The notes beneath the pieces are model-generated. The model was not told the origin of the DNA. It saw only the letters and a list, made by a program, of their open reading frames with translations, and did no database searches. From a virus, in IMG/VR virus record IMGVR_UViG_3300045988_183062, positions 14,512 through 78,511 of that record: 64,000 nucleotides of DNA. One strand, given 5' to 3'. Below are positions 4,602 to 56,722 of this stretch, in pieces. The translations under genes and the position numbers were made by a program. The first letter of the stretch is position 1; each line of letters begins with the position of its first letter.

Positions 4602-6769
4602 CCAAATGGAACGAACTGAAGGTGAAGTTCTCTCTTCTTTCTAAAGAGGAGAAACTGGTCATCTTGTTCTGCTGCTCGTTTGTTGTTTCTCTTATCCCGG
4701 CGGGATTCATTGCGGCGGTATTTGCCGGAGAATGGGATGCGGGATTTTTCCGTAAGCTGTTTCTTAGCATTACAACCGGATATGGCATTATCTCGACTTT
4801 GATTTTCACTGCTGCCATTACATTTGTCATCGTGCTTCTTTCTCGGAAAAATACGGACCTCAACTCGGCAAAAGAAGTTGATGACCGTGGCATGATTACC
4901 TCCAATGCTGGTACTTACGGAACAGCAGAGTGGATGTCAGAGGACGAAGCCAAAAAGGTTTATGAGGTTGGCCCTGTTGAAGATGTGACGGGTACAATTC
5001 TTGGTCAGTTTACGACCGATGGCGAAGAAGTCATTGCTTTGCCGTATGAACCGACTGGCAACCGCAACCTTATCCTTATCGGACCTCCGGGCTCTGGCAA
5101 GTCGTTTGGCTATGTTCGTACTGCTGTGTTCCAGTCTATCGTACGCGGTGAGTCTGTAGTCGTTACTGACCCGAAGGGTGAAATTCACAATGATATGCGG
5201 AAATTACTCGAAGCAAACGGCTATAAGGTAAAGGTATTCAACCTCATCAACCTTGACCTTTCCAATGCCTGGGACTGCGTACAGGAAATCTATGACCCCA
5301 TTACGGGCAACATTGACGACCAGCGTGTTATTGCGTTCTGTAAGACCGTTATTGCCAATACAGGCGGTGGTGCAAACAGCAAGGGCGACCCGTTCTGGGA
5401 GAGTTCGGAAGAAAACTTGTTCCGTGTAGCCGTTTCTTACTGCGCCTATATGCGTGAGACGACCCTTATCAAAATCTATGAGCGCCGCACCAAAGAACTT
5501 CTTACGCAGCTGCCGTTCATTTCGGAAGAAGATGGCAAGGCACTGGTCGAAGCTGTTACAAATCCTGAATCTGCGATGGTGGACCGTCGCCGTGTTGTCG
5601 AGTACCTTGCCAAGAATCTCTATGGCGAGGAAGAAGGAGAGAAGAAGCTGCTGGCTTGGGAGGAAGACGCACCGACCAGCAACATTTCCGACATCTACAA
5701 CGCTCTGATGCACAATGACCTGAACTCTTGGGAAGAAAACTTCAAGAGCGTACCTATGAATCCCCCCGCCGCGTCTGCCTGGGCTGTATTCAAAGGCATG
5801 GGCGAGCGCGTACAGCCTAACATTGTCGGTGGCCTGAACACTCGTTTGCAGTTGTTTATGACCTTTAAGGTTCGCCGCGTTATCAGTAACGATGACATCC
5901 GCCTGGCAGACATTGGCGCTGAAAAGACCGCTCTGTTCCTGATTATCTCGGACGATAACGCATCCATGCAGCTGCTTTCTTCTCTGCTTCTGAGCTTCCT
6001 GTTTAAGGACCTGAAAGAGGCATTCGATGCCGTTGGCGGCGATGGTCGTATCCCTGTAAACGTCATTGCGGACGAGCTGGCAAATACCGGTGTCTGGCCC
6101 AACTTCGAGAAGACGATTGCTACCGCTCGTTCTCGCAAGATTGCAGTTTCCCTTATCTTGCAGAGCTTGCCGCAGTTGACGCAGTTGTATGGCGAGGAAA
6201 ACGCCGAAACCATCATTGGCTGCTGCAACACCATGCTTGTGCTGGGGTGCAACGATAAGTATACGGCCGAGTACATCTCCGACAAGAGCGGCATCGTTAC
6301 GATTCGTGCCAAGAGCGTGAGCGATTCCAGAGCAAATTCCGTTGGTTATCGCGGCGCTATGCAGGGATATTCTCTCAGTGAAGGCGATGGTAAACGCAAC
6401 TTGATGAACCCCGATGAAGTTCAGCACCTTGGCAAAGAAGAGATTCTGATTATGACAAACGGTCAGAACCTGCTGAAAGCCAAGCGCTTTGGCTTTATCC
6501 ATCATCCGCTGTTCTCCGACCCGCACTTTGTTCCGACACGCTGGTCCGAACTGCCTAAGACGGTTGACCTTTATCCCGATGCTCGTAAGCATGATGCTCT
6601 GGAGTCGCTGGTAGGTGACATCCAGCGCCAAAAGGAAGTCAATACGGAAATTGCGCAGAGACGTTCGGAAGTGCGTATGAATCCTCGTATGAGAAAGAGC
6701 GACCTTATCGGAAACGATAAAGTTCCTTCCAAGAAGAACGCTTTTGCAGACAAAGCTAAAAAGAAATAA
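4598..6769 (+). CDS. Type IV coupling protein, TraG/VirD4/TcpA-like ATPase
   Basis: N-terminal TM helices; Walker A LIGPPGSGKSF; Walker B-like hhhhDE (VIADELAN); size and context between T4SS genes. Confidence 0.8.
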   Translation: MTKWNELKVKFSLLSKEEKLVILFCCSFVVSLIPAGFIAAVFAGEWDAGFFRKLFLSITTGYGIISTLIFTAAITFVIVLLSRKNTDLNSAKEVDDRGMITSNAGTYGTAEWMSEDEAKKVYEVGPVEDVTGTILGQFTTDGEEVIALPYEPTGNRNLILIGPPGSGKSFGYVRTAVFQSIVRGESVVVTDPKGEIHNDMRKLLEANGYKVKVFNLINLDLSNAWDCVQEIYDPITGNIDDQRVIAFCKTVIANTGGGANSKGDPFWESSEENLFRVAVSYCAYMRETTLIKIYERRTKELLTQLPFISEEDGKALVEAVTNPESAMVDRRRVVEYLAKNLYGEEEGEKKLLAWEEDAPTSNISDIYNALMHNDLNSWEENFKSVPMNPPAASAWAVFKGMGERVQPNIVGGLNTRLQLFMTFKVRRVISNDDIRLADIGAEKTALFLIISDDNASMQLLSSLLLSFLFKDLKEAFDAVGGDGRIPVNVIADELANTGVWPNFEKTIATARSRKIAVSLILQSLPQLTQLYGEENAETIIGCCNTMLVLGCNDKYTAEYISDKSGIVTIRAKSVSDSRANSVGYRGAMQGYSLSEGDGKRNLMNPDEVQHLGKEEILIMTNGQNLLKAKRFGFIHHPLFSDPHFVPTRWSELPKTVDLYPDARKHDALESLVGDIQRQKEVNTEIAQRRSEVRMNPRMRKSDLIGNDKVPSKKNAFADKAKKK

Positions 6770-6951: not shown

Positions 6952-8112
6952 ATGAACGAGAACGAAATGCTGAACCCCACCACCGTCGAAACCGACGAGG
7001 TGACCACCCCTGTTGCCCCTGCGGAGGAGGCTATGGAAAACGCTCAGAGCGTTGCTCCTGTTGCCGAGCCTGCTGAGGAAAAAGACTCCGTCGAGGCCGT
7101 TCCTGCCCCGGCTAACGACGTAGAGGACGAGGACGATGTCCCTGAAGCTCCCCGCGCTTCCCGCCGTTTCAATGACGACGATTTGCAGATTGGTGCCTTC
7201 ATTGACGATGGCAACGATATGCTGAAAGTCGATATGCCTGAAGACCGCCGCGCCCGTGACCTCGCTGAGATGCGCCGCTGCGTGGCTGACAACAAGCGCA
7301 GCCCTCGCCGCTTCCTGCAGGGTAAGGTCTTCGGTGTCCGTCCTGTTGGCAACGGCAGCGCGGTCGTCGAAGTCACCCGTGGTACGCTGCGCGTGATGAT
7401 TCAGGCTGAGGACTTCTTCCACTTCTCTCAGATGAAGGGCATCGAGAACGATGATGAAGCTACTCGTCAGCGCCGCTTCCTGCGCAAAGCTAAGCTGATG
7501 AATGGTGCTATCATCAACTTCTGCCCCTATCTGGAAGCCGAGTCTGAGGACGGCGAAGTTGTCTTCGCAGGCTCCCGCCAGGACGCCATGCAGCTCCAGC
7601 GCAATCGTCATTTCTTCGGCCGCAACGCCGATGTCAAGGAAGGCACCCGCGCTGCTGCATCTATCCTGTCTACCGGCCCTGATTACGTCATTGCTGAGGC
7701 TCTGGGCGTTGAGACCAGCATTGGTGCTGCTGCCCTGTCTGCTTACGAGTACATCGACAACGTGGCCGACAAGTTCCATGTTGGTGAAGGCATTCCCGTG
7801 GTCATCGAAGACCTGAACGTGGATGCTGAGAACGGCACTGTCAGCCTGCGTATGAACCGCGCTATCCTGGAGCGCCGTGCCAATCCTGCTATGAACATTC
7901 ATAGCCTGGCTCGTGGTGGCGCTTATGGTGCAACTGTTACATCTGTCAATGAGCGCTTCTACCGCCTCATTGTGGATGTCGGCAACATCCAGGCCCGCGT
8001 TGCACTGACTTCCTCTGATGAGCTGCTGACTCGTGGCGACCGCGTGACGCTGCTGGTCTACGGCTATGATGATAAGCGCAACTACGTCTGGGGCGCTTGC
8101 CACAAGGTCTAA
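6952..8112 (+). CDS. Acidic N-terminus protein with 2-3 S1/OB-like repeats (tentative), function unknown
   Basis: RBS AAGGAG upstream of ATG 6952; repeated G-x-V-x-G-x-V pattern reminiscent of S1 domains (GKVFGVRPVGNGSAVVEVTRG). Confidence 0.45.
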   Translation: MNENEMLNPTTVETDEVTTPVAPAEEAMENAQSVAPVAEPAEEKDSVEAVPAPANDVEDEDDVPEAPRASRRFNDDDLQIGAFIDDGNDMLKVDMPEDRRARDLAEMRRCVADNKRSPRRFLQGKVFGVRPVGNGSAVVEVTRGTLRVMIQAEDFFHFSQMKGIENDDEATRQRRFLRKAKLMNGAIINFCPYLEAESEDGEVVFAGSRQDAMQLQRNRHFFGRNADVKEGTRAAASILSTGPDYVIAEALGVETSIGAAALSAYEYIDNVADKFHVGEGIPVVIEDLNVDAENGTVSLRMNRAILERRANPAMNIHSLARGGAYGATVTSVNERFYRLIVDVGNIQARVALTSSDELLTRGDRVTLLVYGYDDKRNYVWGACHKV

Positions 8113-8251
8113 TTCTTACCGGCTGTCTACTGCTTACCCGGTTGACAGCCGGTTGCCATGCAAGATACCAGCCTTCGCGTGGCGCATGGTGAGCAACTGC
8201 TTAACCGCAGGCTGATGGTATCAGAATACAGATATTATGTGATAGGGGTGA

Positions 8252-8599
8252 ATGTTTGTGTGTCAAAATCACGGCGTTCGTTCGGGGCTGTTCTTCTCAC
8301 AGCTTGAAAACAGAGACGTGTTTGTTTCCTGTACTGTACGGAACAATGCGGTAGAGTTGACGGTTTCTGCTTTTCTCGAATTGAATGATGTGGATATGTC
8401 TGCCATTGAAGCGTCATGCAGAGAGAACCAAGCGTTTGTGTCATTGAACGTGAGTGAAAATGGCGTTGTTGCAAGTGTAAAAGAATCCGCACTTCTCTTG
8501 TCTGAGCTGGATAAGAATAAAGAGCTTGCAGTAAGTCTCTTCCACCAGTGCTGCACTGTGATGCTTGCAATCGTCCCGGAAGGGGAGGACAACCAGTAA
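8252..8599 (+). CDS. Small hypothetical protein, translationally coupled to downstream PrgI-like gene
   Basis: ORF ends TAATG overlap with next start; weak RBS. Confidence 0.35.
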   Translation: MFVCQNHGVRSGLFFSQLENRDVFVSCTVRNNAVELTVSAFLELNDVDMSAIEASCRENQAFVSLNVSENGVVASVKESALLLSELDKNKELAVSLFHQCCTVMLAIVPEGEDNQ

Positions 8600-9726
8600 T
8601 GAACAAAGAAGAAAAGCAGCCAAATGTTTACATGATTCCGAAGAACTCGTTCGATACCGGCTACGTCTTTGGTGGTGCGTTCAAAACCAAGAACTTCATC
8701 GAAGGTGTTGTGGTAGCGATTCCATTTCTTGGAATCTTTATTTACGGGTGGACACAACTTGGCTGGGATGTGGAGTCTACCGTAGCCTACGCCGCAATCG
8801 TGTGTGCCGGAGTATTCGTAGCGGTGTCGCACGGCGTAGGGGATGACAGCTTCTTTGAGTTCTTGGCTCACGTAATTCATTTCCGCAAAAGTCGTAGAAT
8901 TTCCAAGTATAATCCGCGTATTAAAACAGAGCTCGAACCCGACTACCTGATGAAGGAAAACGGAATGCTCCCGAAGGAAAAACTGAAAGAAGCATGGGAG
9001 AACTTCAAGAAGAAGGTTCTTGGCGGCGGAGACGGCCCGATTAGTGCAGACATCACCGCTGATGATTTACAGATTTACTACGATGACGATGAGGACTTCG
9101 TAGAAAAGCCTGATGAGCTCAAAACAAAAGCAGAACTCAAAGCAGAAGCAAAGCAACGTGCAAAGGAAGAAAAGGAGTTTATCAATTCCTTGCCGCGCAA
9201 CCAACGCCGTGCTGCGCGTGCTGCTTTGAGGCAGAAGCATAAGGAAGAAGCCGAAGCTAAGAAGCGTCAAGAGGAAGAGCACGAAAAGATGGTTCAGGAA
9301 CGCATTAAGCGCCGTATCGAAAAGGCTGAACGTATCAAAGCTGCTCAGTATCGCGCCAAGTTAGTCGCTATGCAGCAGATGCAGCAACAGACTGACCCCA
9401 ACTTTATTCCTGCTCAATCCGAAGAACAGACGATGGATGTTGTGCTGGACGAAGTCGAAACCATTACCGAGACTCCTGAAATGAGTCTTGATGATGTGAC
9501 GCTGTTGGATGATACGACCTCTGCTGAACCGGAAGAAATTGATGTCAGTTTTGATGAGGAAGCAGCTCCTAATGGACCGTTCGTGCCACGCATCATCACG
9601 AATGAACGCGTGAAGAATCAGGCGGGACCGGTTATTCGTCCTTTGAAAGCCAAGCCTCAAATCTATAACAGTCACAATGGAGACTTTTCCGCTGATTCGT
9701 TCTCCATCTTTGACGACGAGGAGTAA
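8599..9726 (+). CDS. PrgI/Orf17/TcpE-like small T4SS membrane protein fused to long charged coiled-coil tail
   Basis: Two TM helices at N-terminus (VVVAIPFLGIFIYGW..; YAAIVCAGVFVAVS) immediately upstream of VirB4 gene; K/E-rich repeat region. Confidence 0.6.
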   Translation: MNKEEKQPNVYMIPKNSFDTGYVFGGAFKTKNFIEGVVVAIPFLGIFIYGWTQLGWDVESTVAYAAIVCAGVFVAVSHGVGDDSFFEFLAHVIHFRKSRRISKYNPRIKTELEPDYLMKENGMLPKEKLKEAWENFKKKVLGGGDGPISADITADDLQIYYDDDEDFVEKPDELKTKAELKAEAKQRAKEEKEFINSLPRNQRRAARAALRQKHKEEAEAKKRQEEEHEKMVQERIKRRIEKAERIKAAQYRAKLVAMQQMQQQTDPNFIPAQSEEQTMDVVLDEVETITETPEMSLDDVTLLDDTTSAEPEEIDVSFDEEAAPNGPFVPRIITNERVKNQAGPVIRPLKAKPQIYNSHNGDFSADSFSIFDDEE

Positions 9727-12691: not shown

Positions 12692-13282
12692 ATGTCTGAA
12701 ATTCACAACACTGACATCCGCGAACTGCTCGATTCCATTCCGGTTATCCCTAATACGCTGATGGAAGAATATCTGACACGTCGGTACGAAATTACACCCA
12801 ACAAGGCTCGCGAAATCATCTACAACGCTTGCCGCAAAGGTTCAAACCGCCGTCCGGCCTGCTATGCTACCAATGACGGCCTTGCCAAAGCCGATTACAT
12901 TACTATGACGAGCCTGTATCGTAAGCGTTGCCGTGCATTCCGTGTTGCTTGCGAGTTCTTGCCGGAGAGCCGTCGTTTTTCGATTCCCGCCACCAGCCCT
13001 TGGTTGCTGAGCTTTTGCTTTGATAGCAGCGTCTATTATGTCTGTGAGTTTGAAAAAGGCAAGGAGCTCATTACGGCTGATATGATTCGCAACGCCGGTA
13101 TTCGCGAAGATATGATGTCCGTTACCTCTCGTATCGCTATTCTGCGCCCTGGCGCAAAGCGTGAGCTGTTGGATGGCTGCGGCATCCGCTTTTTCTGCAC
13201 GGTTGACGATGATTACAACCTCGATGTGACCGAGCAGGTTCCTGACGAGGAGGTTTGGGATGGCGTTCCCATCGTTGATTGA
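12692..13282 (+). CDS. Hypothetical protein
   Basis: RBS AAAGGAGA 8 nt before ATG; coding-like composition. Confidence 0.55.
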   Translation: MSEIHNTDIRELLDSIPVIPNTLMEEYLTRRYEITPNKAREIIYNACRKGSNRRPACYATNDGLAKADYITMTSLYRKRCRAFRVACEFLPESRRFSIPATSPWLLSFCFDSSVYYVCEFEKGKELITADMIRNAGIREDMMSVTSRIAILRPGAKRELLDGCGIRFFCTVDDDYNLDVTEQVPDEEVWDGVPIVD

Positions 13283-14033
13283 TTACAAACGATACATCGA
13301 AGAAAACAAGCCGAACGGAAAACCTGTTTCCAACCGTTCCGATTCACCATCTGAGAAGCCGGTTCTTTACCACGATACGGCAGGGTATGTAAAGAAACAC
13401 GTCCAAAATGCTTCTGCTATGATGAGCCAAATCCAAGATAATATGCCACTCAGCAAGATTTCAGCATCTATCCTGAATAGTGTTTCCATCGAACTTTTGA
13501 AGTCCGAACGCTCGATTTTAGCATCTTTCCAAGGACGAGAAAAGCCTGTTCCGTATAAAAAAGATGCTGGAATGGGTGCTATTCCAGATGATTTCTGTTC
13601 AGTATCAGCACCAAAACATGCGCTCCTGGCGGTACGCTATAAGTCGTTTTTGCCACCATTTCACTATGAGTGGTACAGCCGCAAAGCAAAAGAAAAAGAC
13701 GACGCCGGACAGTATTATTTGGATGCAGAATTCGACATTATTACCGAAGCAGCTGTGACAGAATACATCTCAAAGAATGGGCCTATCAACGTGCCATCAG
13801 GACTTGTGTATCTGGTATTTCGCAGAGGTATCCGACCAGGCGGTAAGATGCCGATAGACAACAATAACGTCTATACGGGGGCTATCACCAATGCTATCAG
13901 CCGCGTACTGCAACACGGTGATGGCTGGCAGCAAATGAGCTTCGTCTACACCGCCATAGAGGATACAGATGGGCCATATCTGGATGTGATTTTGTGCAAA
14001 AAATCAGACATCACAAGATGGATTGAAGCGTAG
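13260..14033 (+). CDS. Hypothetical protein
   Basis: RBS GGAGG 7 nt before ATG 13260, overlaps previous gene end. Confidence 0.55.
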   Translation: MAFPSLIDYKRYIEENKPNGKPVSNRSDSPSEKPVLYHDTAGYVKKHVQNASAMMSQIQDNMPLSKISASILNSVSIELLKSERSILASFQGREKPVPYKKDAGMGAIPDDFCSVSAPKHALLAVRYKSFLPPFHYEWYSRKAKEKDDAGQYYLDAEFDIITEAAVTEYISKNGPINVPSGLVYLVFRRGIRPGGKMPIDNNNVYTGAITNAISRVLQHGDGWQQMSFVYTAIEDTDGPYLDVILCKKSDITRWIEA

Positions 14034-14201
14034 CTCGGATACAACAATTTTGGGAACTGTAAAATACAACATTTTCAGGATGCTGTTTTTACGTCCCTGA
14101 AATTGTTGTATCTTTTCTTCGTTTTTAGGCGCAGTAATAGGCTTTCGGTGTATCATGTGGTACGGCATAGCGCTTCTTATATACAAATAGTAGGTGACAA
14201 A

Positions 14202-15467: not shown

Positions 15468-15739
15468 TAGCAATTCGAGTGTGCCCGATATGCAAGAAGA
15501 CGTTCGAGGGTAGAGTAGGCGTCCCGAAAGTCTATTGCGATGACTGCATGATAACGCAAGACCTTGCAGCAATGGACGAAGCCGTAAAGGAGTCAAGTTG
15601 GTTCTTTGACGGAGATGATGAGAAATTTGAAGAGATAGAAGACGAGAAAGACCCGATTCTCGTTCCATCACTTTTGCCGCCGCCTCCACGACAGAGTAAA
15701 GAGTCTCTTTTAAGTCTCATTCAAAAGAAGCGTAGCTGA
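15464..15739 (+). CDS. Small zinc-ribbon protein (CPICK...CDDC)
   Basis: RBS GGGAGGAAG before ATG; two CxxC pairs. Confidence 0.5.
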   Translation: MIAIRVCPICKKTFEGRVGVPKVYCDDCMITQDLAAMDEAVKESSWFFDGDDEKFEEIEDEKDPILVPSLLPPPPRQSKESLLSLIQKKRS

Positions 15740-15801
15740 TAGCGCACGTCCAAAACCTCAAAAGCAAATATTACTATTTTATGAACATCGAAGGACCACA
15801 A

Positions 15802-15830
15802 TTGAGACAATTACGAATTCGTGGTATAAT
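15802..15830 (+). promoter_or_regulatory. Sigma70-type promoter TTGAGA-17-TGgTATAAT
   Basis: Consensus -35, 17-bp spacer, extended -10. Confidence 0.6.
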
Positions 15831-15945
15831 GGCGATGAAAATAAAGAAGACGAAACACGGAAGGAGCGTAGCTGCCGAAGCGTAGCCGAAGAACTACAAA
15901 CCTCAAAGCGTAGCTCCTGACCGTAGGCACTTGAGGTTTTGAGAA

Positions 15946-16611
15946 ATGACTAAGAAGTTCATTGTTCCTTACGTAGTTGTATCGCTGGCAATGGCTGCTG
16001 CAATTAGCGTAGCCAGTAGTGATGGAGCCGTAGTTGCAAGAAGCTACTCTGGATACAACAACCAGAAGCCGAGCGTAGCTGCTGACTATACCTATCAAAC
16101 CGTAGGCATTCCCTGGAATAACACTTATGTTGAAGTGACTGCGACACAGGCGAGAGAAATCAAAGATGGCATCGTTATCTTTGCGTATCCTCGCTGCCCT
16201 TACTGCCGCAACCTGATTCCTGAACTTACCAGTATTGCCAAAGAAAAGAACCAGACCGTTTACTACTGCCAAATCGATGAGTACCGCGACATCTACGCAT
16301 ACGACGAGAATACTGGTGCTCCTGTGATGACAAAAGCAGCAGGGGAAGGGTATGATGAACTTCTCAATTGGCTGCAAGACTACCTGGCAGATTACACGAT
16401 AAGCGATAAGGATAAGAACAAGTACGAAATCGGAGAGAAGCGTATCGGCGCTCCTACCATTGTTCGCATCGAAGATGGTGAACCTGTTTCTACCTGGAAG
16501 CTAAGTTCGGTTGAAGATGTTTCGTACCCGGAGAACAAATACGACTCGTGGGATGATACTGTACGAGTTAAAGTCTCTGACTCGCTGAGAGACTACTTTG
16601 AGGAGGCATAA
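15946..16611 (+). CDS. Secreted thioredoxin-fold protein with CPYC active-site motif
   Basis: Signal-like N-terminus MTKKFIVPYVVVSLAMAAAISVASS; YPRCPYCRNLIPEL (CxxC). Confidence 0.65.
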   Translation: MTKKFIVPYVVVSLAMAAAISVASSDGAVVARSYSGYNNQKPSVAADYTYQTVGIPWNNTYVEVTATQAREIKDGIVIFAYPRCPYCRNLIPELTSIAKEKNQTVYYCQIDEYRDIYAYDENTGAPVMTKAAGEGYDELLNWLQDYLADYTISDKDKNKYEIGEKRIGAPTIVRIEDGEPVSTWKLSSVEDVSYPENKYDSWDDTVRVKVSDSLRDYFEEA

Positions 16612-16613
16612 AG

Positions 16614-16802
16614 ATGAAAGGCTTTAACATCGGATTGGTGCTGTACGTCGATTCGCAGTTTCTGGTAACGGCTTGTATTATGGCTGTTGTCTTCACGCTG
16701 ACCGGCGTGACTGAATACCTTCCCACTTGGGTTATTACGCTGTACTTCTTTGGCCTTTATGGGTTCTTTGCCTATAACGCACTCAAAGACGACGATAATT
16801 AA
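16614..16802 (+). CDS. Small membrane protein (2 predicted TM helices)
   Basis: ATG 4 nt after previous stop, hydrophobic. Confidence 0.45.
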   Translation: MKGFNIGLVLYVDSQFLVTACIMAVVFTLTGVTEYLPTWVITLYFFGLYGFFAYNALKDDDN

Positions 16803-16980
16803 AGCGTAGCCCGGCGGGTGAAACCGTAGGTGCGCGTGGAACGAACCGTAGGCAGAGGATGAAAGCATCGCTGCCAATAGCAAAGGAGCTTATGAACGAC
16901 GGAAGCGTAGCTGCCACCATGAAACTGGTTGCTGGTTGCGTAGCCGTCGTTCTTTTTCTTTTTAGGAGGCGTAACCAAAC

Positions 16981-25743: not shown

Positions 25744-25938
25744 AGTAAAAGAGGGGAGCTAAACAAGCTCCTCTCTTTCTTTTGTCAAGGTCTTCCACAG
25801 TTGTAGAGTAACTAATGGGATTGCAAACGGCAAATTCTTCCATACCCCTTGCATCTCACCACTTGATAGGCTATAATAACAACAGTCAGTTGTTATATGC
25901 AAATTAGGAACCATCTGTACGAATTGAGGTTGTATATT

Positions 25939-27207
25939 ATGGCAAAAGAACGAGCCATCCTTCATTGCGATATGAACTGCTTCTATGCCAGCTGTGAGAT
26001 GGCCTACTATCCTGAATTACGGGACAAGCCGATTGCCGTGTGCGGTGACCCAGAACGGCGGAGTGGCATCGTATTGACCGCTTCATACCCGGCCAAGCGG
26101 ATGGGCGTGAAAACCGGTATGCCGCTTTGGGAGGCGCAGCAGCATTGCAGAGACATCACCTTTGTTCCGGCTCACTATGACCTATACACCCGATTCAGCG
26201 GCTACACCAGAGAAATCTTCCTGCGCTATACAGACCAAGTCGAACCGTTTGGCTTGGACGAGGCCTGGCTCGATTGTACCGCGAGTCAGTCTCTCTTTGG
26301 GACAGGGGAGGAGATAGCAAAGAAAATCTCCGACACCGTCAAGGACGAACTCGGCATTACCTGCTCGGTCGGAGTCAGTTGGAATAAAACGATGGCAAAA
26401 CTCGGCTCGGACTATAAAAAGCCGGATGCTATTACGGTCATCAACAGGCAGAACTTCGAGAAGATAGTTTTTCCGCTGCCTGCTTCGGATTTGCTATATG
26501 TAGGAAAGAAAACGGCTGCCAAGTTAGATAACTATGCTATACATACCATTGGAGACTTGGCAAAGACCAGACCTCAGTTTCTGCAGGAGAAGCTCGGCAA
26601 GGTGGGGCTCTTGCTCTGGAGGTTTGCCAACGGCCTGGATTCTGACCCGGTGGCAAAGTACGAGCAGCGGGAGGTGCTTGCTCCCATCAAGAGCATCGGA
26701 AATAGCTGGACGACACCACGGGACTTAAAGACCGACCAGGATGTTTGGATAGTGCTTTACCTGCTCGCAGAGAGTGTCGCGGCACGCCTCCGAGAGAACC
26801 ATTTCCGATGCCGAGGCGTGGAGGTGAGTTTGAGAGACTCCAACCTATTCAGCTTCGAGCGCCAGATGAAACTGTCCCTACCGACAATGCAGGAGCAGGA
26901 GATAGCGACGGCCGCGTTCACGTTATATAAAAAGCACTATCATTGGAGCGAGCATCTTCGTTCCATTGGCGTGCGGGCCATAGACCTACAGCCGGATACG
27001 GAGCCTTGCCAAATCTCGTTCGACTTCAGTGCCGAAAAGCAAGAAGAGATGGAACGCTTAGAATCTGCCATTGATGGGGTCAGAAACCGATTTGGATACT
27101 ATTCTGTACAGCGAACCGTGATGTATAAGGACCGACTCCTCTCGCATTGCGACGCGAGGGCAGACCATACGATTCACCCACACGGATACTTACAAGGGAG
27201 CATATAA
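25939..27207 (+). CDS. Y-family DNA polymerase (UmuC/DinB-like)
   Basis: N-terminal HCDMNCFYASCE motif (cf. DMDAFFASVE), typical length. Confidence 0.8.
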   Translation: MAKERAILHCDMNCFYASCEMAYYPELRDKPIAVCGDPERRSGIVLTASYPAKRMGVKTGMPLWEAQQHCRDITFVPAHYDLYTRFSGYTREIFLRYTDQVEPFGLDEAWLDCTASQSLFGTGEEIAKKISDTVKDELGITCSVGVSWNKTMAKLGSDYKKPDAITVINRQNFEKIVFPLPASDLLYVGKKTAAKLDNYAIHTIGDLAKTRPQFLQEKLGKVGLLLWRFANGLDSDPVAKYEQREVLAPIKSIGNSWTTPRDLKTDQDVWIVLYLLAESVAARLRENHFRCRGVEVSLRDSNLFSFERQMKLSLPTMQEQEIATAAFTLYKKHYHWSEHLRSIGVRAIDLQPDTEPCQISFDFSAEKQEEMERLESAIDGVRNRFGYYSVQRTVMYKDRLLSHCDARADHTIHPHGYLQGSI

Positions 27208-30725: not shown

Positions 30726-30754
30726 TTGATTTTATATACCACATGTGGTATAAT
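30726..30754 (+). promoter_or_regulatory. Strong sigma70 promoter TTGATT-17-TGgTATAAT with embedded perfect 16-bp palindrome ATACCACATGTGGTAT (operator)
   Basis: Consensus hexamers, extended -10, palindrome occupies the spacer/-10. Confidence 0.7.
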
Positions 30755-30760
30755 ACAATA

Positions 30761-30973
30761 TAGAGAGCAAGGACAAAGACCCGACGGTGCTGTCGATGGC
30801 AGCCACGTAAACCGGGGCAGGGTATAGTGCCTGAGTTCTCACAAACTTTGCCGTCCCTCTCCGACGGTTCTATCTGCTTCCATGCAGTCACCTCGTTCCT
30901 TACATCCTTTCTTTATCCTTTCTTACGGACCCCGCTGCTTTCCCCGCAAAGAGCAGCGGGGGTTCTTTTTTGT
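30761..30973 (+). ncRNA. Candidate ~210-nt small RNA of unknown class (own promoter and intrinsic terminator, no credible ORF)
   Basis: Promoter at 30726-30754; terminator hairpin ccccgctgc..gcagcgggg + TTCTTTTTTG at 30929-30973; CU-rich 3' half (UCACCUCGUUCCUUACAUCCUUUCUUUAUCCUUUCUU) resembling anti-SD-type sRNA seed. Confidence 0.5.
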
Positions 30974-32947: not shown

Positions 32948-32989
32948 CTGAAGTTCTTTCACACAGTCCCTGCGGGGGCTGTTGCCGCT

Positions 32990-33030
32990 TTAAGAAGACA
33001 GCCTCCACGGGGCGAGCGGCGGGCAACGGG
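32990..33030 (+). repeat. GC-rich structured intergenic repeat, copy 1 (GCCTCCACGGGGCGAGCGGCGGGCAACGG)
   Basis: About 80% identical to 35530-35570; embedded in inverted-repeat hairpins, no T-run. Confidence 0.5.
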
Positions 33031-33080
33031 AAAGGCTCCTGGCGAATAGTCTTCAGAACGAAAAAGAAGGGGAGAAAGCC

Positions 33081-42885: not shown

Positions 42886-43548
42886 ATGAACAAAAACATC
42901 CATTATACCGCAACGCGCATCACCTGCGAGTTGGAGAACGACATCTACAATTACATCGAGAGCCAGCTGGCAAAGAAGCTCGTACAGAAAGCTACCGCCG
43001 GGCGCAAGCAGTATTTCTATTATGGCAACGACTCGGACAGCACGGCCATGCAGGTTGCGATGACCGATGAGGAAGCAAAGCACCTGGCTGAGTGTTCTGT
43101 CCTGCTTGCCGAGCGGCTTATGGTGATGTACAACATGACGGCTGGCTTCAAAAACATCGAGATGCAGGCAACTACAGGCAAGCCGAAAGAAGCTACCTGG
43201 CCCAAGGTCTACAATACGATGGTTGCGAAAGGTTCGCCCTTGTATGATGAGCCGCTCCTTGGCCGCGTTTACAACCTGCCGAGCTACTATGCTTTGAAGA
43301 AGTACGACCGCCAGCTGATGTCCGACATGTATGAAGCCATGCTGATGGTGGTCTACGATACGGCCGCCGAGCTCAAAGGTCAGTGGGATACTAACGGCAA
43401 GATGACCTTGCAGAATCCTCTGTTCACACATATCGCTGTGACCATCTTCAACGGTCTCCTGGGTGCCACGACGATGCGCTACAAGGTTCTCAAAGATACG
43501 CCCGCCGGGGTTATGGAGGGAATGCACATTGAATCTGCTGCGGTTTAA
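42886..43548 (+). CDS. Hypothetical protein Q1, paralog of 49721-50320 protein; upstream partner of NADAR gene
   Basis: RBS AGAGG; region AKHLAECSVLLAERLMVMYNMTAGF ~ AKSLAYAATKMAERLIELSNKTDGFF. Confidence 0.55.
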   Translation: MNKNIHYTATRITCELENDIYNYIESQLAKKLVQKATAGRKQYFYYGNDSDSTAMQVAMTDEEAKHLAECSVLLAERLMVMYNMTAGFKNIEMQATTGKPKEATWPKVYNTMVAKGSPLYDEPLLGRVYNLPSYYALKKYDRQLMSDMYEAMLMVVYDTAAELKGQWDTNGKMTLQNPLFTHIAVTIFNGLLGATTMRYKVLKDTPAGVMEGMHIESAAV

Positions 43549-43972
43549 GAAAGACGACCCGACCTACGGGTTTCTGAGCAATTATTATCCTTGCTCCTTT
43601 GTGCTGGATGGAATCTACTACCTCAACGCGGAAGCAGCATTCCAAGCCCAGAAGGTCCCGCCGGAGGAAAGACGCCAGTTTGCCTGCCTCATGCCGAACG
43701 AGGCGAAGAAACTCGGCCGCCGGGTCCAACTTTCTCCAGATTGGGACGAAGTTCGAGACGAAGCGATGCGCCGGGTGCTGTATGCCAAGTTCAGCCAGAA
43801 CGAGGAGTTCAAACAGCGACTGCTCGCTACAGGCGACCGGCACATTATCGAAGACACGACCGGCTGGCACGATAACTATTGGGGGAAATGCCAGTGTCCC
43901 AGATGCAAGGGCGTTCACGGTCAGAACAAACTGGGCATGATGCTCGAAGAAATCAGGACCAAATTAAGATAA
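43529..43972 (+). CDS. NADAR (YbiA/DUF1768) domain protein, predicted ADP-ribose N-glycosidase
   Basis: TTG start with RBS GGAGGG; motifs GFLSNYYP..F..DGIYYLNAEAAFQAQK and GWHDNYWG; overlaps Q1 gene end by 20 nt. Confidence 0.7.
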   Translation: MNLLRFKKDDPTYGFLSNYYPCSFVLDGIYYLNAEAAFQAQKVPPEERRQFACLMPNEAKKLGRRVQLSPDWDEVRDEAMRRVLYAKFSQNEEFKQRLLATGDRHIIEDTTGWHDNYWGKCQCPRCKGVHGQNKLGMMLEEIRTKLR

Positions 43973-48066: not shown

Positions 48067-48387
48067 ATGAATACTTGCACTCTGAAATTTGAAGCTACCG
48101 TATTCCGCAATGATGACGACAACAACCTCGAGAGTTTTTCGGCATCCATCAGCGTTCCCGTGGAGAACGATGACGAAGTGATTGGGAACATGCTGGGCGA
48201 TGAGAAGCTGATTGTTCATGCTGTTGCAGCACTGTACAACCTTATCAGCGACCTGCACCCCAACTGGCTGGACGGCGAGGATACCAGCCTGACGCTGGAT
48301 ATTTCCATCGACGGCAGCGAGGCCCAGTCACGCGGCGGTCTCGTCGCTATGAAAGGGAACGGCTTCACTTTCGACCTCGAAGATTAA
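48067..48387 (+). CDS. Small acidic protein, duplicated cassette copy 1
   Basis: RBS AAAGGAGA; ~45% identity to 48572-48899 protein. Confidence 0.55.
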   Translation: MNTCTLKFEATVFRNDDDNNLESFSASISVPVENDDEVIGNMLGDEKLIVHAVAALYNLISDLHPNWLDGEDTSLTLDISIDGSEAQSRGGLVAMKGNGFTFDLED

Positions 48388-48400
48388 GCTGAGACAATTC

Positions 48401-48439
48401 GGAGCCTTGCCTGCAGCAGCGGGTGAGGCTCCTTTTTTG
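48401..48439 (+). terminator. Terminator ggagcc..ggctcc + TTTTTTG
   Basis: Near-identical to terminator at 48912-48951. Confidence 0.7.
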
Positions 48440-48571
48440 TTGCGTAGCTGCTAAACGGATAAGAGAGCGTAGCTGCAAAAACCGTAGGCGCGACGGTTGA
48501 CGCGATATGCGAACCGCATACAATAATAAGTACCACAGGAAACCAATAACACATACAAAGGAGAATACCAC

Positions 48572-48899
48572 TATGAACACCAACCCAAACCTGATTGAGT
48601 TCAGCGCCACCGCTTTTCGTCCCAAGGATGACAACACCCTTGACAGCCTCACCGCTTCTATCAGCTTTCCCGCCGACAAGGAAAACGACGTGATTGCTCA
48701 GACTCTGGACGATGAGGACCTGGTTGCCTATGTCATTGGTGCGCTGCATGACCTCGTTGTTTACATGCGTCCCAACTGGCTGGACAACGAAGATTCCAGC
48801 CTGACTCTCGATGTCAGTCTGGACGGCGTAAAGTGCAAGTCTTGCGGCGGCCTGGTCACCATGACGCAGAAGGGCTACACCTTCGACGTGGAAGGCTAA
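48572..48899 (+). CDS. Small acidic protein, duplicated cassette copy 2
   Basis: Same RBS context (ccaataacacatacaaaggaga). Confidence 0.55.
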
Positions 48900-48951: not shown

Positions 48952-49256
48952 TGCTGCATGGCCGCGATATGCAGTTGACACGATATGCGACCACCATATA
49001 CTAATAGATATTGAACAGCGCTGATAGTGTTGCTTCGGTAAAGACGAATAGGGTCTTGAGCGGACCTTAAACGCTCACTGCGAGAACGGCCTGCCTGCTG
49101 CTAACAGGCGGGTCTTTTCTTTTTATACGATGGCAAAGACTCTCTTTCAAAATGTGTACAGAAGATTAAAAACAAACTACTATCGTTGTATTTCGCCACA
49201 TTTACAGGTAAAATTATAGATAGAGAAAGCAAAAAAAGCACATTGCATCCACAAAA

Positions 49257-51593: not shown

Positions 51594-51689
51594 TGTTTGA
51601 TGAAGCCGAAAACGGACAAGAAATCGAAAGTGCCTACCGTAAGCTGTGCATACCGCTGCGGCACTGTAAATTGGAGGGAAAATAAACCT

Positions 51690-52025
51690 ATGATGCACCA
51701 GAAACTGGTTCGGGATAATATCCCGGCTATTATTGAGAAAAACGGAGAAACTTGCGTGACTCGCAAGCTGACCGACAAAGAATACGAGACTGCTTTGGCC
51801 GAAAAGTTGCAAGAAGAAGTCAAAGAGCTGCTGGAAGCCTACACAGCAAAACAGCGGAGTGTTCTGGACTGTGCCGAGGAAATGGCGGATGTTATGGAGG
51901 TCATGTACGCTATGGGTAAGACTTGCGCTGTTTCCAAGCGAGAAATTGAACAGGTCAGAAGTCAGAAGGCGGCGGAGAAGGGGACTTTCTCTAAGAAAAT
52001 CTTCTTGGTTTCGACTGAAAAGTGA
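51690..52025 (+). CDS. MazG/HisE-like all-alpha NTP pyrophosphohydrolase
   Basis: N-terminal KLVRDNIPAIIEKNG and EE-rich helices typical of house-cleaning NTP-PPases. Confidence 0.55.
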   Translation: MMHQKLVRDNIPAIIEKNGETCVTRKLTDKEYETALAEKLQEEVKELLEAYTAKQRSVLDCAEEMADVMEVMYAMGKTCAVSKREIEQVRSQKAAEKGTFSKKIFLVSTEK

Positions 52026-53486: not shown

Positions 53487-53765
53487 AACCGCAAAGAGAT
53501 GCGGTGATAGCAAACAAAAATAACGTAGAACCAATAGTGGCAGAATATACAATGCTGAATATATGCAAAATTCTTTGTTATGTAATTTTGCCGTAGCAGC
53601 CCGTGTGACTGCGTAAGATTGAAACGAGGACGGTATCGACTACATGTCGTCCGAAAGCATCGTAGCAGCCCATGTGGCTGCGTAAGGTTGAACGTCCATC
53701 CGTAAATCACGGGTGGGCGTTATTTTTGTACCCGCAAAACTCAAAACAAAATACGATAAAAAGTG

Positions 53766-53893: not shown

Positions 53894-56722
53894 ATGACTC
53901 TCGCTAACCTGTCTACTGAGCAACAGGACCTTGTACGCCTGGCTCTCGCAGGCAGAAATATACTCTGTGACGCTTGCATCGGCAGCGGTAAAACATCGAC
54001 CATCAACGTGTTGTGTAACGAGTTTGATGCCTCCAAACAGATTCTGTATCTGACCTATAACCGTCTGCTAAAACTTGATGCACAGGAGAAAATCCTGAAC
54101 GATAACGTCACCGTGCAGAACTACCACGGCTATGCTTCTAAACTCCTCTATCGACACGGAATCCGTAACATCGGACAGGGCGAACAAATTAAAAAAGCGC
54201 TCGACTTGCATGTCCCGGTCGGTCGCTATGACGTGCTCATCATCGATGAGTACCAAGATATTAACGAAGAAATCTCACGTTTGCTTGAATACATCAAGGA
54301 AGAAAACCCCACCATGCAAATTATTGCGGTGGGGGATATGGCGCAGAAAATCTACGACACCACGTCCTTGGACATTTGGAAATTCATCCACGGTTTCCTT
54401 GGCGCACACACGCAGGTCAATTTCACACAATGTTTCCGTCTATCCCACAACTTGGCCGAGCGACTTGGCACTATCTGGAATAAGGAAATCAATGGTGTAA
54501 ATGAGAACTGCGAAGTCAAGTCCATGACGAAAGACGAGGTTATCGAGTACCTGAACGACTTGGACCCCAAGAATGTCCTTTGCCTTGGCGCTCGTACCGG
54601 CCAGATGGCCGCAGTTTTGAATGCCTTGGAAGAGCGCCCCGATAATCTTTACGACAAAAAACATGTTTATGCCAGCATCAAAGACAACGACGGCGAAAAA
54701 AGCGTGGCTCCGAACAGCAATGTGGGCATCTTCACGACATTCGATGGCAGCAAGGGCATGGAGCGCCCTATCTGCGTAGTCTTTGATTTTACCGAGGATT
54801 ACTGGGCGACCCGTATGCGCCAGCCTCTGACTCGCTACGAAATCATGCGCAACCTCTTTTGCGTAGCTGCGAGCCGTGGCAAGCAGGAGGTCATCTTCGT
54901 CAAACCCGATAAGCGTAGCCTCGTGAGCGACAAGACACTAATGACCCCTGTCAAGACTCGCACCACCTTTAAGGACAAATTCGACATCAGTGAAATGTTC
55001 GATTTCAAGTTCGATGAAGATGTGGATGCGTGCTACAACCTTATCACGGCCAAGCAGGTATTCCAACAAGACCAGACGGAAATCGAAATCAAGCACTCCG
55101 ATGCGATGATTGACCTGTCTCCCTGCATTGGCATCTACCAGCAGGCAAACTTCTTCGATTTTTACGACATCGACAGCGCCATCGCCTTCTTCATGTACCT
55201 ACACAAGGACAAGATGGCGAAGGTTCCAACCACTTGGAAGTCAGTTGAGCAAAAAGTTCTGTTTCTTACAATGCTGATGACGAGCCAGGACCGTTATATC
55301 AAGCAGGTAGAACTGCCTTTCATCACGCCGGAGCAGGCTAAAGCACTGACCGACCGTCTTTCTACTATGTTCACGCATGACGAAGAGGTTCAGGAACGCG
55401 CCGAGTTGAAACTTGTTGTGGAGCAGGATGAATTGAAACAGCCTGTCACTTCTCTTATCGTCAGTGGCATGGCCGATGTAGTCAAAGATAATAAAGTTTA
55501 TTGCCTTAAATTTGTGTCGAACCTCGCGCACAAGCATTTCATCCAGTGCGCCTGCTATATGCTCGCTACAGGCCTGCCTACCGGTGTACTTTGGAACATT
55601 CGGGATAACACGATGTATGAAGTCGAAATTCCGGACCGCACGGCGTTTTTGAACGCAGTGGTGAAGTGTATCACAAAGGGCGTCTATACGGAAGCTCTCT
55701 CCTACAATCTGGAGAAAGACTACTCCCAAAGCCTCGATACGATTCTTGACCGAGTTATGTCCGACACTTCGCTGCCTGAATTTGATACCGGCGGCAACAT
55801 TGTAGAGGAAACGCCGCAGGACGAAGGTGTTGCTATTATCAAGCAGGGTGAGCAGTATGTCATCCTGGATGCCGGAACCCGCTCTATCGTGGATGGCACA
55901 GCAGTAAACGGCTACGACACGATTCTGGCCGCCTGCGAAGCATACGTAAAGCAGAACAAGAAAGCCACGGAGGAATCGGTGAACAAAAAAGAACTTCTCC
56001 ATATCATCGAACAGTGGCTTGATGACCATGCAGAGTTTGAGCATCAGATGTCTTGCGTGGCAGTCGATATTGAGAACCATGTCGGCCCGTATTCAGGCTA
56101 TTCAACCTTCTCTACCTATGTAGTTCGCAAGATGCTCAAAGACTGCGGCTTGGTCATCGACTTCAACGAACGTCAGCTTCTCAAGGTCTGGAAAGTCCGC
56201 GAGAAGAAGCGCCCGAAGCCTGTCACCCAGTACAGCACGGCTCAAGCCCCGAAACAGGTAGTTTTGAATCCAGCTGACAGCTTTGAGCAGATGCTGAACA
56301 GCTTGCAGAGCATGGGCGTGGATGTCAAAGTCGCGGAAGAGACCGCAACGGAACCTTACGACTTCTCCCAGTACAAGCGTTTGCCGCCGGAGCGTAAGAC
56401 GTATGATTCTGAGCCCGTCGGCTGGTGGAAGGATGGGGAAGAGCAGTATAAAAAAGAGAAAGAAGCTCTTCCGGCCGACTATCGAGTTATTCGCTCCTCT
56501 AAGCTGTCTAAACCCGGTGATGTACGCTACGTTATCATGGAAGAGGATTCCAACACTGTGCTGGACGACGCAAACGGGTATGGGTACAAATCCGTTCAGG
56601 CTGCGCACAAGGGCTATGGCTATAAGCGGCGCAACGGTGGCAGTTTTGGTTCCAAGAAGAAAGAAAAGAGTGAAGCAAAGCCTCAGACCACGGGCGAGCA
56701 GCTTTCGTTTGGAGGTCTGTGA
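53894..56722 (+). CDS. UvrD/PcrA-like superfamily-1 DNA helicase with long C-terminal extension
   Basis: Motif I CIGSGKTST, motif II VLIIDEYQDI; RBS GGAGGA. Confidence 0.75.
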   Translation: MTLANLSTEQQDLVRLALAGRNILCDACIGSGKTSTINVLCNEFDASKQILYLTYNRLLKLDAQEKILNDNVTVQNYHGYASKLLYRHGIRNIGQGEQIKKALDLHVPVGRYDVLIIDEYQDINEEISRLLEYIKEENPTMQIIAVGDMAQKIYDTTSLDIWKFIHGFLGAHTQVNFTQCFRLSHNLAERLGTIWNKEINGVNENCEVKSMTKDEVIEYLNDLDPKNVLCLGARTGQMAAVLNALEERPDNLYDKKHVYASIKDNDGEKSVAPNSNVGIFTTFDGSKGMERPICVVFDFTEDYWATRMRQPLTRYEIMRNLFCVAASRGKQEVIFVKPDKRSLVSDKTLMTPVKTRTTFKDKFDISEMFDFKFDEDVDACYNLITAKQVFQQDQTEIEIKHSDAMIDLSPCIGIYQQANFFDFYDIDSAIAFFMYLHKDKMAKVPTTWKSVEQKVLFLTMLMTSQDRYIKQVELPFITPEQAKALTDRLSTMFTHDEEVQERAELKLVVEQDELKQPVTSLIVSGMADVVKDNKVYCLKFVSNLAHKHFIQCACYMLATGLPTGVLWNIRDNTMYEVEIPDRTAFLNAVVKCITKGVYTEALSYNLEKDYSQSLDTILDRVMSDTSLPEFDTGGNIVEETPQDEGVAIIKQGEQYVILDAGTRSIVDGTAVNGYDTILAACEAYVKQNKKATEESVNKKELLHIIEQWLDDHAEFEHQMSCVAVDIENHVGPYSGYSTFSTYVVRKMLKDCGLVIDFNERQLLKVWKVREKKRPKPVTQYSTAQAPKQVVLNPADSFEQMLNSLQSMGVDVKVAEETATEPYDFSQYKRLPPERKTYDSEPVGWWKDGEEQYKKEKEALPADYRVIRSSKLSKPGDVRYVIMEEDSNTVLDDANGYGYKSVQAAHKGYGYKRRNGGSFGSKKKEKSEAKPQTTGEQLSFGGL

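Follow-up and report, generated by a model that had tools for sequence, protein, structure and literature searches.

Arrays of a conserved, strand-specific hairpin-type motif around a thioredoxin-like cassette in a conjugative element of the human gut

The window analysed here is the whole 64,000-nt stretch at positions 14,512 to 78,511 of the IMG/VR record IMGVR_UViG_3300045988_183062. It is part of an element of about 245 kb, in which a short DNA motif is repeated around and inside a cassette coding for a thioredoxin-like protein and a small membrane protein. Almost all genes of the window are on the + strand. The window codes for a VirD4-type coupling protein, a VirB4/TraG-like ATPase, and an M23 peptidase, and genes for a type IV secretion system (T4SS) pilin and a RecD2-type helicase lie directly upstream of it; the element is conjugative. 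Matches to the thioredoxin-like protein were found in 375 blocks of public assemblies; among those listed, the longest contigs measure 228–246 kb, originate from human gut metagenomes, and are 99.9–100% identical over the region.

Two heptamers make up the repeats, GCGTAGC (G type) with 14 copies and CCGTAGG (C type) with five copies on the + strand of the window. The − strand has two and five copies, respectively, which is background level. Chance expectation was taken from an order-2 Markov model of the window; its 200 simulations had a mean of 2.9 sites per strand, with a maximum of eight and at most three in any 1.3-kb span. The repeats had been noticed in a prediction made from the letters of the window alone (the original prediction), and its claim of a density beyond chance holds, with 19 sites on the + strand against about three simulated ones. 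The densest 1.3 kb of the window holds 13 of the 19 sites. The at least 11 copies that it counted in the two flanks of the cassette are clustered indeed, but there are 10 in the flanks and three more inside the thioredoxin-like gene. A third cluster, which it placed at 48425–48470, exists as well, but spans 48442–48488. Spacing from copy to copy is irregular, 8–66 nt, without helical phasing and with one pair 8 nt apart.

In an alignment of 53–65 non-redundant sites from the window and from diverged relatives, the repeated unit is 13 nt long and has the form (A/T)-[S-CGTAG-S']-Y-R-C. The core C-GTA-G is present in 53 of 53 clustered sites from four lineages. Enrichment is limited to the GTA loop, and versions with GAA, GCA, or GGA are at background level. 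On the + strand, the outer bases of N-CGTAG-N covary, with G..C in 38 sites and C..G in 15, versus two with G..G and four with C..C, and this pattern is absent from the − strand. The covariation indicates that the core is a 2-bp stem in which a C-G pair closes a GTA triloop. Outward of the outer heptamer pair, no covariation was found among 65 sites, and the stem is thus 2 bp long. The motif is not palindromic. Its 3' flank is constrained, with a pyrimidine at position +1 in 65 of 65 sites, G at +2 in 45, and C at +3 in 48. The pyrimidine-purine step is mostly TG, and CTG is the commonest step on the 3' edge of the motif.

The motif fits the rules of the sequence class d(SCGNAGS'), with a GNA triloop closed by C-G and an outer pair G-C or C-G. 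This is the class of the d(GCGNAGC)/d(CCGNAGG) mini-hairpins of Hirao et al., with which it shares the GNA loop, the C-G closing pair, and both stems. The class is a structural one and not a biological system, and N is exclusively T here. According to a review from 2026, the extraordinarily stable fold is limited among all GCNNNGC sequences to those with GNA loops, and d(GCGTAGC) has a melting temperature (Tm) of 70 °C (PMC13037366). GC-GC and CC-GG stems are permitted, CG-CG and GG-CC stems fail, and RNA counterparts are far weaker, with a Tm of 39 °C for r(GCGAAAGC) (PMC13037366). If these published measurements on stability and allowed stems apply to the element, the two variants present in it coincide exactly with the two stems that DNA permits, and a DNA hairpin is favoured over one of RNA. 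The use of N=T alone implies a specific reader.

Clusters are found at equal places, and on the + strand only, in syntenic relatives (loci L007/L051/L058, L008–L010/L123, and L011–L013) in which the thioredoxin-like protein is merely 54–66% identical. The motif is thus kept at diverged homologous loci. Number, order, and spacing of the copies vary; cluster 1, upstream of the thioredoxin-like gene, has three copies in L007/L051/L009 and zero in L011. GCGTAGC is the top-enriched 7-mer shared by four diverged lineages, with 30 copies and no reverse complement. In L024, which is 97% identical to the window, 0 of 98 motif positions are changed, versus 43 of 697 (6.2%) other intergenic positions, and an extra copy has been gained over the next gene's ribosome-binding site. 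At the nucleotide level, the motif is kept by purifying selection. Within the thioredoxin-like gene of L011, the motif occupies the homologous site but is read in a different frame (AAG CGT AGC TCG, coding for KRSS, versus CCG AGC GTA GCT, coding for PSVA), so that selection acts on the nucleotides and not on the protein. The same locus has a new in-gene copy where the remaining lineages encode EIK or QIQ; copies come and go. A near-copy, GCGTGGC, at position 54702 of the window (in a helicase gene) is a perfect GCGTAGC at position 3303 of L048, from another metagenome. The difference is synonymous (GTG to GTA), and copy number is thus polymorphic within the population.

The distribution of the arrays is narrow. 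An unrelated small element (L014–L016 and L052–L054) has homologues of the thioredoxin-like protein without the motif, and no clusters are present in the distant relatives of the T4SS module (L175–L178), whose version of the 421-aa protein coded just upstream is 42–45% identical. In pattern scans of IMG/VR, JGI metagenomes, and GTDB genomes, arrays were found solely in relatives of the element among the matches listed; the remaining listed matches are coding tandem repeats or chance. A scan of genome contigs with the terminator-module pattern gave one chance-like match, in a metagenome-assembled genome of Bythopirellula. Among the matches listed, motif arrays are limited to one element family. 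Taken together, it is very probable that the motif is selected, strand-specific, and acts as a single-stranded hairpin.

The copies are placed among transcription signals (Table 1). The lone copy in front of the attenuator is kept in L051, L008, and L058, and is degenerate (ACGTAGT) in L011. The attenuator hairpin itself (14065–14110, −17 kcal/mol) is formed also in the distant relative L177, which is without the motif. The strong promoter of the thioredoxin-like cassette is shared by all lineages compared and keeps its tggtataat in L007, L009, L011, and L051, and its position puts cluster 1 into a 5' leader of about 108 nt. For this leader, a possible leader peptide and a hairpin immediately before the thioredoxin start had been proposed. 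An 18-codon open reading frame (ORF) exists at 15829–15885, but it is absent or different in L009 and L011 and its ATG overlaps the −10 box of the promoter, and a leader peptide was rejected. The hairpin is present too and covers the likely Shine-Dalgarno sequence, but it is not conserved in the relatives, and sequestration of the Shine-Dalgarno sequence was likewise rejected.

Downstream of the cassette, cluster 2b coincides with a long-stem intrinsic terminator of −35.4 kcal/mol (z = −4.9), which has motif copies within its 5' and 3' arms. A consensus structure is shared by four lineages, with compensatory changes in three pairs, and the use of G-U pairs in the stem shows that it is an RNA structure. 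Cluster 3 starts 10 nt past a terminator stem, ends 8 nt 5' of the next −35 hexamer, and is kept in L019, L038, L040, L086, and L174. The order terminator, motif, promoter recurs in relatives, where modules are shuffled. Compared with the window, L019 carries an additional small-RNA module that begins exactly behind the first GCGTAGCTGC, with GCGTAGCTGC on either side of it. The expectation that the clusters delimit variable cassettes agrees with these data, as they sit at junctions of modules rearranged between relatives.

Table 1. Motif copies, transcription signals, and selected genes of the window (heptamer starts are given as positions in the window)
Feature	Position	Strand	Description
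Single copy	14028–14034	+	GAA-GCGTAGC-TCG; TAG is the stop codon of gene 13260–14033; directly 5' of the attenuator/terminator hairpin
Attenuator-like structure	14039–14125	+	Two similar 5' arms ATACAACA[A/T]TTT..GG, each complementary to CCCTGAAATTGTTGTAT, then T-run
Single copy	15730–15736	+	At the end of a 91-aa zinc-ribbon gene; 65 nt 5' of the −35 hexamer
Sigma-A promoter	15802–15830	+	TTGAGA-17-TG-n-TATAAT, promoter of the thioredoxin-like cassette; 11/12 match, extended −10
Cluster 1	15866–15927	+	5' leader; G type at 15866, 15880, 15908; C type at 15921
Leader hairpin	15900–15937	+	ACCTCAA (15900–15906) and TTGAGGT (15931–15937); two motif copies in the loop
Thioredoxin-like gene	15946–16611	+	Secreted; signal peptide and linker in the 5' part
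In-gene copies	16007–16106	+	Starts at 16007, 16073, 16100; first 160 nt of the thioredoxin-like gene, signal peptide/linker region
Membrane protein gene	16614–16802	+	62 aa; after the thioredoxin-like gene
Cluster 2a	16804–16852	+	G type at 16804; C type at 16824, 16846; directly follows the stop codon of gene 16614–16802
Cluster 2b	16894–16963	+	Long-stem intrinsic terminator; stem 16894–16952, T-run 16953–16963; copies at 16905, 16938
Y-family polymerase gene	25897–27207	+	
NADAR gene	43463–43972	+	
Intrinsic terminator	48401–48432	+	Terminator of gene 48067–48387; followed by cluster 3
Cluster 3	48442–48488	+	Between terminator T-run and promoter; G type at 48442, 48467; C type at 48482
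Promoter	48497–48524	+	TTGACG-16-TACAAT; 8 nt downstream of cluster 3
MazG-like gene	51597–52025	+	
In-gene copies	54861–54919	+	Starts at 54861, 54913; inside a UvrD/PD-(D/E)XK helicase gene
MBL/anti-Pycsar-like gene	61399–62556	+	MBL, metallo-beta-lactamase

By analogy with the ops elements, the copies are read here, with a probability of roughly 40%, as hairpin and pause signals of the non-template strand that would control transcriptional read-through. They would work during the passage of RNA polymerase, when about 10 nt of the non-template strand of the transcription bubble would fold into the mini-hairpin and expose the loop T. The invariant pyrimidine and the following purine directly 3' would be the pause step, and the paused complex would be read by a polymerase-associated factor, for which specialised NusG paralogues are the precedent. 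Such a factor may then alter the fate of the polymerase at the attenuator, at the long-stem terminator of cluster 2b, and in read-through past the terminator preceding cluster 3, while arrays would raise the chance of capture or serve as serial speed bumps. Pausing, factor recruitment, and an effect on termination are all proposed by analogy. The net effect may be anti-termination or enhanced termination and insulation, between which the sequence does not distinguish. Co-transcriptional reading is favoured by the size of 13 nt without any longer stem, which fits a bubble-sized element, and by the invariant Y followed by R/G, which can be taken as a pause step. It is favoured also by the strand of the copies, which is the non-template strand for all genes of the region, and by their location in the leader, in the first part of the coding sequence, and within or beside terminators.

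Among the closest known signals is that of UpxY of Bacteroides fragilis, which reads a non-template-strand hairpin YGCGNAGCR; the ops of the PSA locus is ccGCGTAGCgca, and its heptamer GCGTAGC is that of the G-type copies (PMC11685472). Common to UpxY opsX and the motif are the GCG-N-AGC core of a non-template hairpin, the position in a leader, and the human gut habitat. Unlike UpxY opsX, the motif has a CCGTAGG variant beside the G type, occurs in arrays of 3–13 and not as one site per operon, and is flanked by A/T..Y-R-C and not by Y..R. opsX also comprises an RNA pause hairpin and duplex contacts, both upstream, which are not consistently present here. The gene downstream is thioredoxin-like and not upxY, and the host looks like a Firmicute and not like Bacteroides. 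RfaH of Escherichia coli reads GCGGTAGC as a non-template hairpin with a flipped loop T, a C3:G8 stem pair, and a TG pause step, in a bubble which holds merely 10–11 nt, and a swap of the stem pair keeps function partly (PMC5995543). The ops of RfaH (GGCGGTAGnnTG; JUMPstart) is similar to the motif in its bubble size, the small hairpin closed by C:G, the flipped T, the TG step at the 3' side, and its association with long operons gained by horizontal transfer, among them those for conjugation (PMC5995543). However, the loop has three bases here and not four (GTA versus GGTA), the pause step is nearer to the hairpin, and the motif is multi-copy and is found also after terminators and inside genes. 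The 12-nt consensus of RfaH is not matched, as the motif reads GCG-TAGC-YG and has the TG step in another register.

Several observations weigh against ops-like signals. No NGN/KOW (NusG-like) protein was found by Pfam, and no RfaH-like protein was identified, in about 79 kb (the window, 6.7 kb upstream, and 8.6 kb downstream) of the about 245 kb of the element. Up to 13 copies are present in about 1.2–1.3 kb, versus a single or at most double ops per operon leader. Cluster 3, the junctions in L019, and a cluster in L096 lie after terminators or upstream of promoters, where they would be reached by read-through polymerases only. The flanks are A..Y, versus Y..R in the ops of B. fragilis. Nearest-neighbour folding of the motif gives about 0 kcal/mol and does not predict the hairpin; standard folding parameters are unable to capture the mini-hairpin (PMC13037366). 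Finally, most strong terminators of the window have no motif nearby, which rules out a general tie of the motif to terminators, and no further clusters were found in the 15 kb flanking the window. From both, the motif system is local and not genome-wide.

A search for the reader protein in the neighbouring genes against Pfam, NCBIfam, PHROGs, and PDB sequences was uninformative, and an AlphaFold2 model of a 79-aa protein had a predicted local distance difference test score (pLDDT) of 58. The 421-aa upstream protein was rejected as reader; it is part of the T4SS module that is present also in motif-free relatives and is therefore not tied to the motif. A broader proposal, doubtful at present, is that the mini-hairpin arrays are an undescribed elongation code of Gram-positive mobile elements, with several hairpin and pause units of the non-template strand set into leaders, the start of coding sequences, terminator arms, and spacers behind terminators. 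It would be read by a factor unrelated to NusG or by RNA polymerase itself, and would set stop or read-through for each module on a 245-kb plasmid transcribed in one direction. The region resembles Gram-positive conjugation operons in having intrinsic terminators that need regulated read-through and in its unusually long-stem terminator (PMC8191782; see also PMC10325885). The anti-terminator conAn2 of such an operon, on the other hand, is an RNA region of 260–600 nt with a GC-rich tract and stem-loops, and not a repeated 13-mer (PMC8191782).

Other functions of a single-stranded hairpin were considered as well. Mini-hairpins on a single-stranded + strand, exposed during transfer or as template of the lagging strand, could exclude single-stranded DNA-binding protein (SSB) and mark start sites of primase or RNA polymerase, as single-strand initiation signals (ssi) and single-strand origins (sso) do. 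The T4SS pilin, VirD4, VirB4-like, and RecD2-type helicase genes of this conjugative element speak for it, as do the strict strand specificity and the few clusters per about 79 kb, which is as expected of ssi sites. The CTG at the 3' edge of the motif is the template trinucleotide of E. coli DnaG. Mini-hairpins bind SSB poorly and are present in the primase origins of G4, St-1, and alpha3, in ssiA of RSF1010 (CCGAAGG), and in the single-stranded DNA (ssDNA) promoters of N4 (PMC13037366). With G4-type origins and ssiA, the motif shares the mini-hairpin, the one specific strand, and the mobile replicon. These signals are, however, single multi-hairpin structures of 40–100 nt near an origin, with the mini-hairpin atop a longer stem of 5–8 bp or more, whereas here covariation stops at 2 bp and short units without stem extension are scattered over a transcription unit. 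In F-like plasmids, the unidirectional genes have the transferred strand as their template; by this analogy the − strand would be transferred here, and its TAC loop forms no mini-hairpin. Priming would also give no reason for copies in coding sequence, terminator arms, and a 5' leader, and no primase was detected in the window. Such a role is unlikely. At the RNA level, GUA-triloop mini-hairpins of the transcript could be bound by a regulator in the style of N/boxB, HutP, or CsrA, and could compete with the terminator stem or control stability or translation of the cassette mRNA. The motif strand is the transcript strand, with copies in leader, early coding sequence, and 3' region. The terminator with G-U pairs is an RNA structure with copies in both arms, and a protein holding these as mini-hairpins would block the long stem. 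Protein-binding RNA motifs had been suggested in the original prediction, and this came nearer than its other suggestion in that the motif is a single-stranded hairpin; the allowed stems fit DNA better (PMC13037366). The RNA mini-hairpin is weak (the Tm of 39 °C given above), the restriction to exactly the two DNA-allowed stems, with no G-U or A-U variants seen, would be left unexplained, and transcripts would seldom include the clusters past strong terminators and 5' of promoters. The neighbouring genes gave no RNA-binding domain, and the motif regions no Rfam family, the sole gathering-level match of the window being a ribozyme elsewhere. An RNA-level role is quite unlikely.

The other suggestion of the original prediction was iteron- or parS-type sites. 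As double-stranded DNA, the copies could be iteron-, centromere-, or operator-like sites for a helix-turn-helix (HTH), ParB-like, or winged-helix protein of the element. Short direct repeats are indeed clustered in intergenic DNA near promoters, HTH/Mor-like proteins are coded in the window, and the 421-aa protein just upstream is winged-helix-like by sequence inspection. In a duplex, though, covariation of positions 1 and 7 would be meaningless. The irregular spacing, the single strand, the copies within coding sequence and terminator arms, the lack of a palindrome (ParB/KorB-type sites are palindromic), and the lack of rep/par genes adjacent to the clusters do not fit either, and the 421-aa protein with its T4SS module is found in motif-free L175 and L177. 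Of ssDNA priming, RNA-protein sites, and duplex sites, the last are the least supported, and are considered very unlikely. The copies could also be recombination or module-junction sites, or neutral repeat expansions hitch-hiking with shuffled modules of promoter, gene, and terminator. The small-RNA module flanked by GCGTAGCTGC in L019, the L096-type cluster that abuts an IscB-like insertion in L078, and the difference of copy number between lineages would agree with it. But every copy is under purifying selection, in-gene copies are maintained across reading frames, no recombinase is associated with the clusters, and many module junctions are without the motif. This is the most improbable of the alternatives. 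Further candidates were rejected on sequence or architecture. HutP and TRAP sites have UAG or GAG triplets with spacers of 2–4 nt, whereas UAG triplets are 8–66 nt apart here. Repetitive extragenic palindromes and bacterial interspersed mosaic elements (REP/BIME), which are associated with RAYT, have GTAG beside a palindrome of 20–40 nt and occur in both orientations genome-wide, whereas here GTAG is within a 7-nt hairpin, without a long palindrome, and in one orientation. The catabolite-responsive element (cre) of CcpA fits only loosely (AANCGNWNNC); the covarying positions are not its palindromic partners and its TG/CA ends are missing. For a promoter of an extracytoplasmic function (ECF) sigma factor (GAAAC...CGTA), spacings are 15–59 nt versus the 16–17 nt required. 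CS-6 of ssoA (TAGCGT), Chi-like sites, and CRISPR misfit in sequence or architecture.

Near the motif clusters, some further features were observed. A likely small-RNA gene at 48975–49120 (+) has a promoter TTGACA-16-TATACT, a body of about 110 nt, and a strong terminator at 49088–49114, and is about 80% conserved in L019, L038, and L040, where it is at another module junction. As the small-RNA gene (49003–49115) has no complement to the motif, a trans-acting small RNA on the motif was rejected. The small genes 48067–48387 and 48574–48899 are paralogous and have near-identical terminators (GGAGCCTTGCCTGCAGCAGCGGGTGAGGCTCC and a variant), with a motif cluster at the first junction only. At 30745–30961 (+), an extended −10 promoter (tgtggtataat) is followed by a non-coding stretch of about 200 nt with a terminator of −22 kcal/mol at its end, possibly a structured RNA or leader. 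L096 and L135 have kept this unit, with three motif copies upstream of its promoter, where the window has none. L078 belongs with L096 and L135 as a relative with that three-copy cluster; beside the cluster, a gene (7634–9058 of the locus) is inserted for a 474-aa protein with RuvC-like and HNH motifs, IscB-like by inspection of its sequence. L009 has an extra motif cluster absent from the window, and downstream of it (5420–5520) are three direct repeats GTAGACATT, which could be an iteron-like site. Two repeated hairpin units of about 45 nt (cGTAGCAGCCCgTGTGgCTGCGTAAGgTTGAAcG) lie at 53583–53695 (+) of the window, between a gene for a RlaP-like nucleotidyltransferase and the terminator and promoter that follow.

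The rest of the window, with genes for a Y-family polymerase, NADAR, RlaP, MazG-like, and MBL/Apyc1-like proteins and a sortase, resembles the leading-region or anti-defence gene set of conjugative plasmids; its NADAR, MBL, Y-family polymerase, and MazG-like genes share one strand. The thioredoxin-like protein has weak matches to the bacteriocin-maturation disulfide isomerases PedC/BrcD and to the F-type pilin-assembly disulfide isomerase TrbB, and may be an accessory oxidoreductase of the T4SS. A hepatitis delta virus (HDV)-like ribozyme, HDV-F-prausnitzii (RF02682), was identified at 32984–33055 (+) with 47 bits, above the Rfam gathering level, and hints at a host related to Faecalibacterium. 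The sigma-A promoters, the strong Shine-Dalgarno sequences, the sortase, and this ribozyme point to a probable Firmicute host. In blastn of 13–20 kb of the window versus phage and plasmid collections, no distant match was found.

Of known signals, the motif is most like the hairpins by which anti-termination factors are brought to RNA polymerase; their occurrence in arrays is not known to have been described. To our knowledge, recognition of a folded non-template DNA hairpin is documented so far for RfaH and Bacteroides UpxY, with one site per operon. If ops-like signalling is true for the motif, the principle would be extended to another phylum, to multi-site arrays, and to positions inside genes and terminators. 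The signal would be compact and testable, with 13 nt, and its natural GC..GC and CC..GG variants are a built-in compensatory-mutation experiment. If priming on ssDNA is true instead, an unusual mini-hairpin priming signal would be present on a Gram-positive conjugative element. In either case, in an element that recurs in hundreds of data blocks from human gut metagenomes, the motif would be a handle on the module-wise control of expression in very long one-directional mobile elements.

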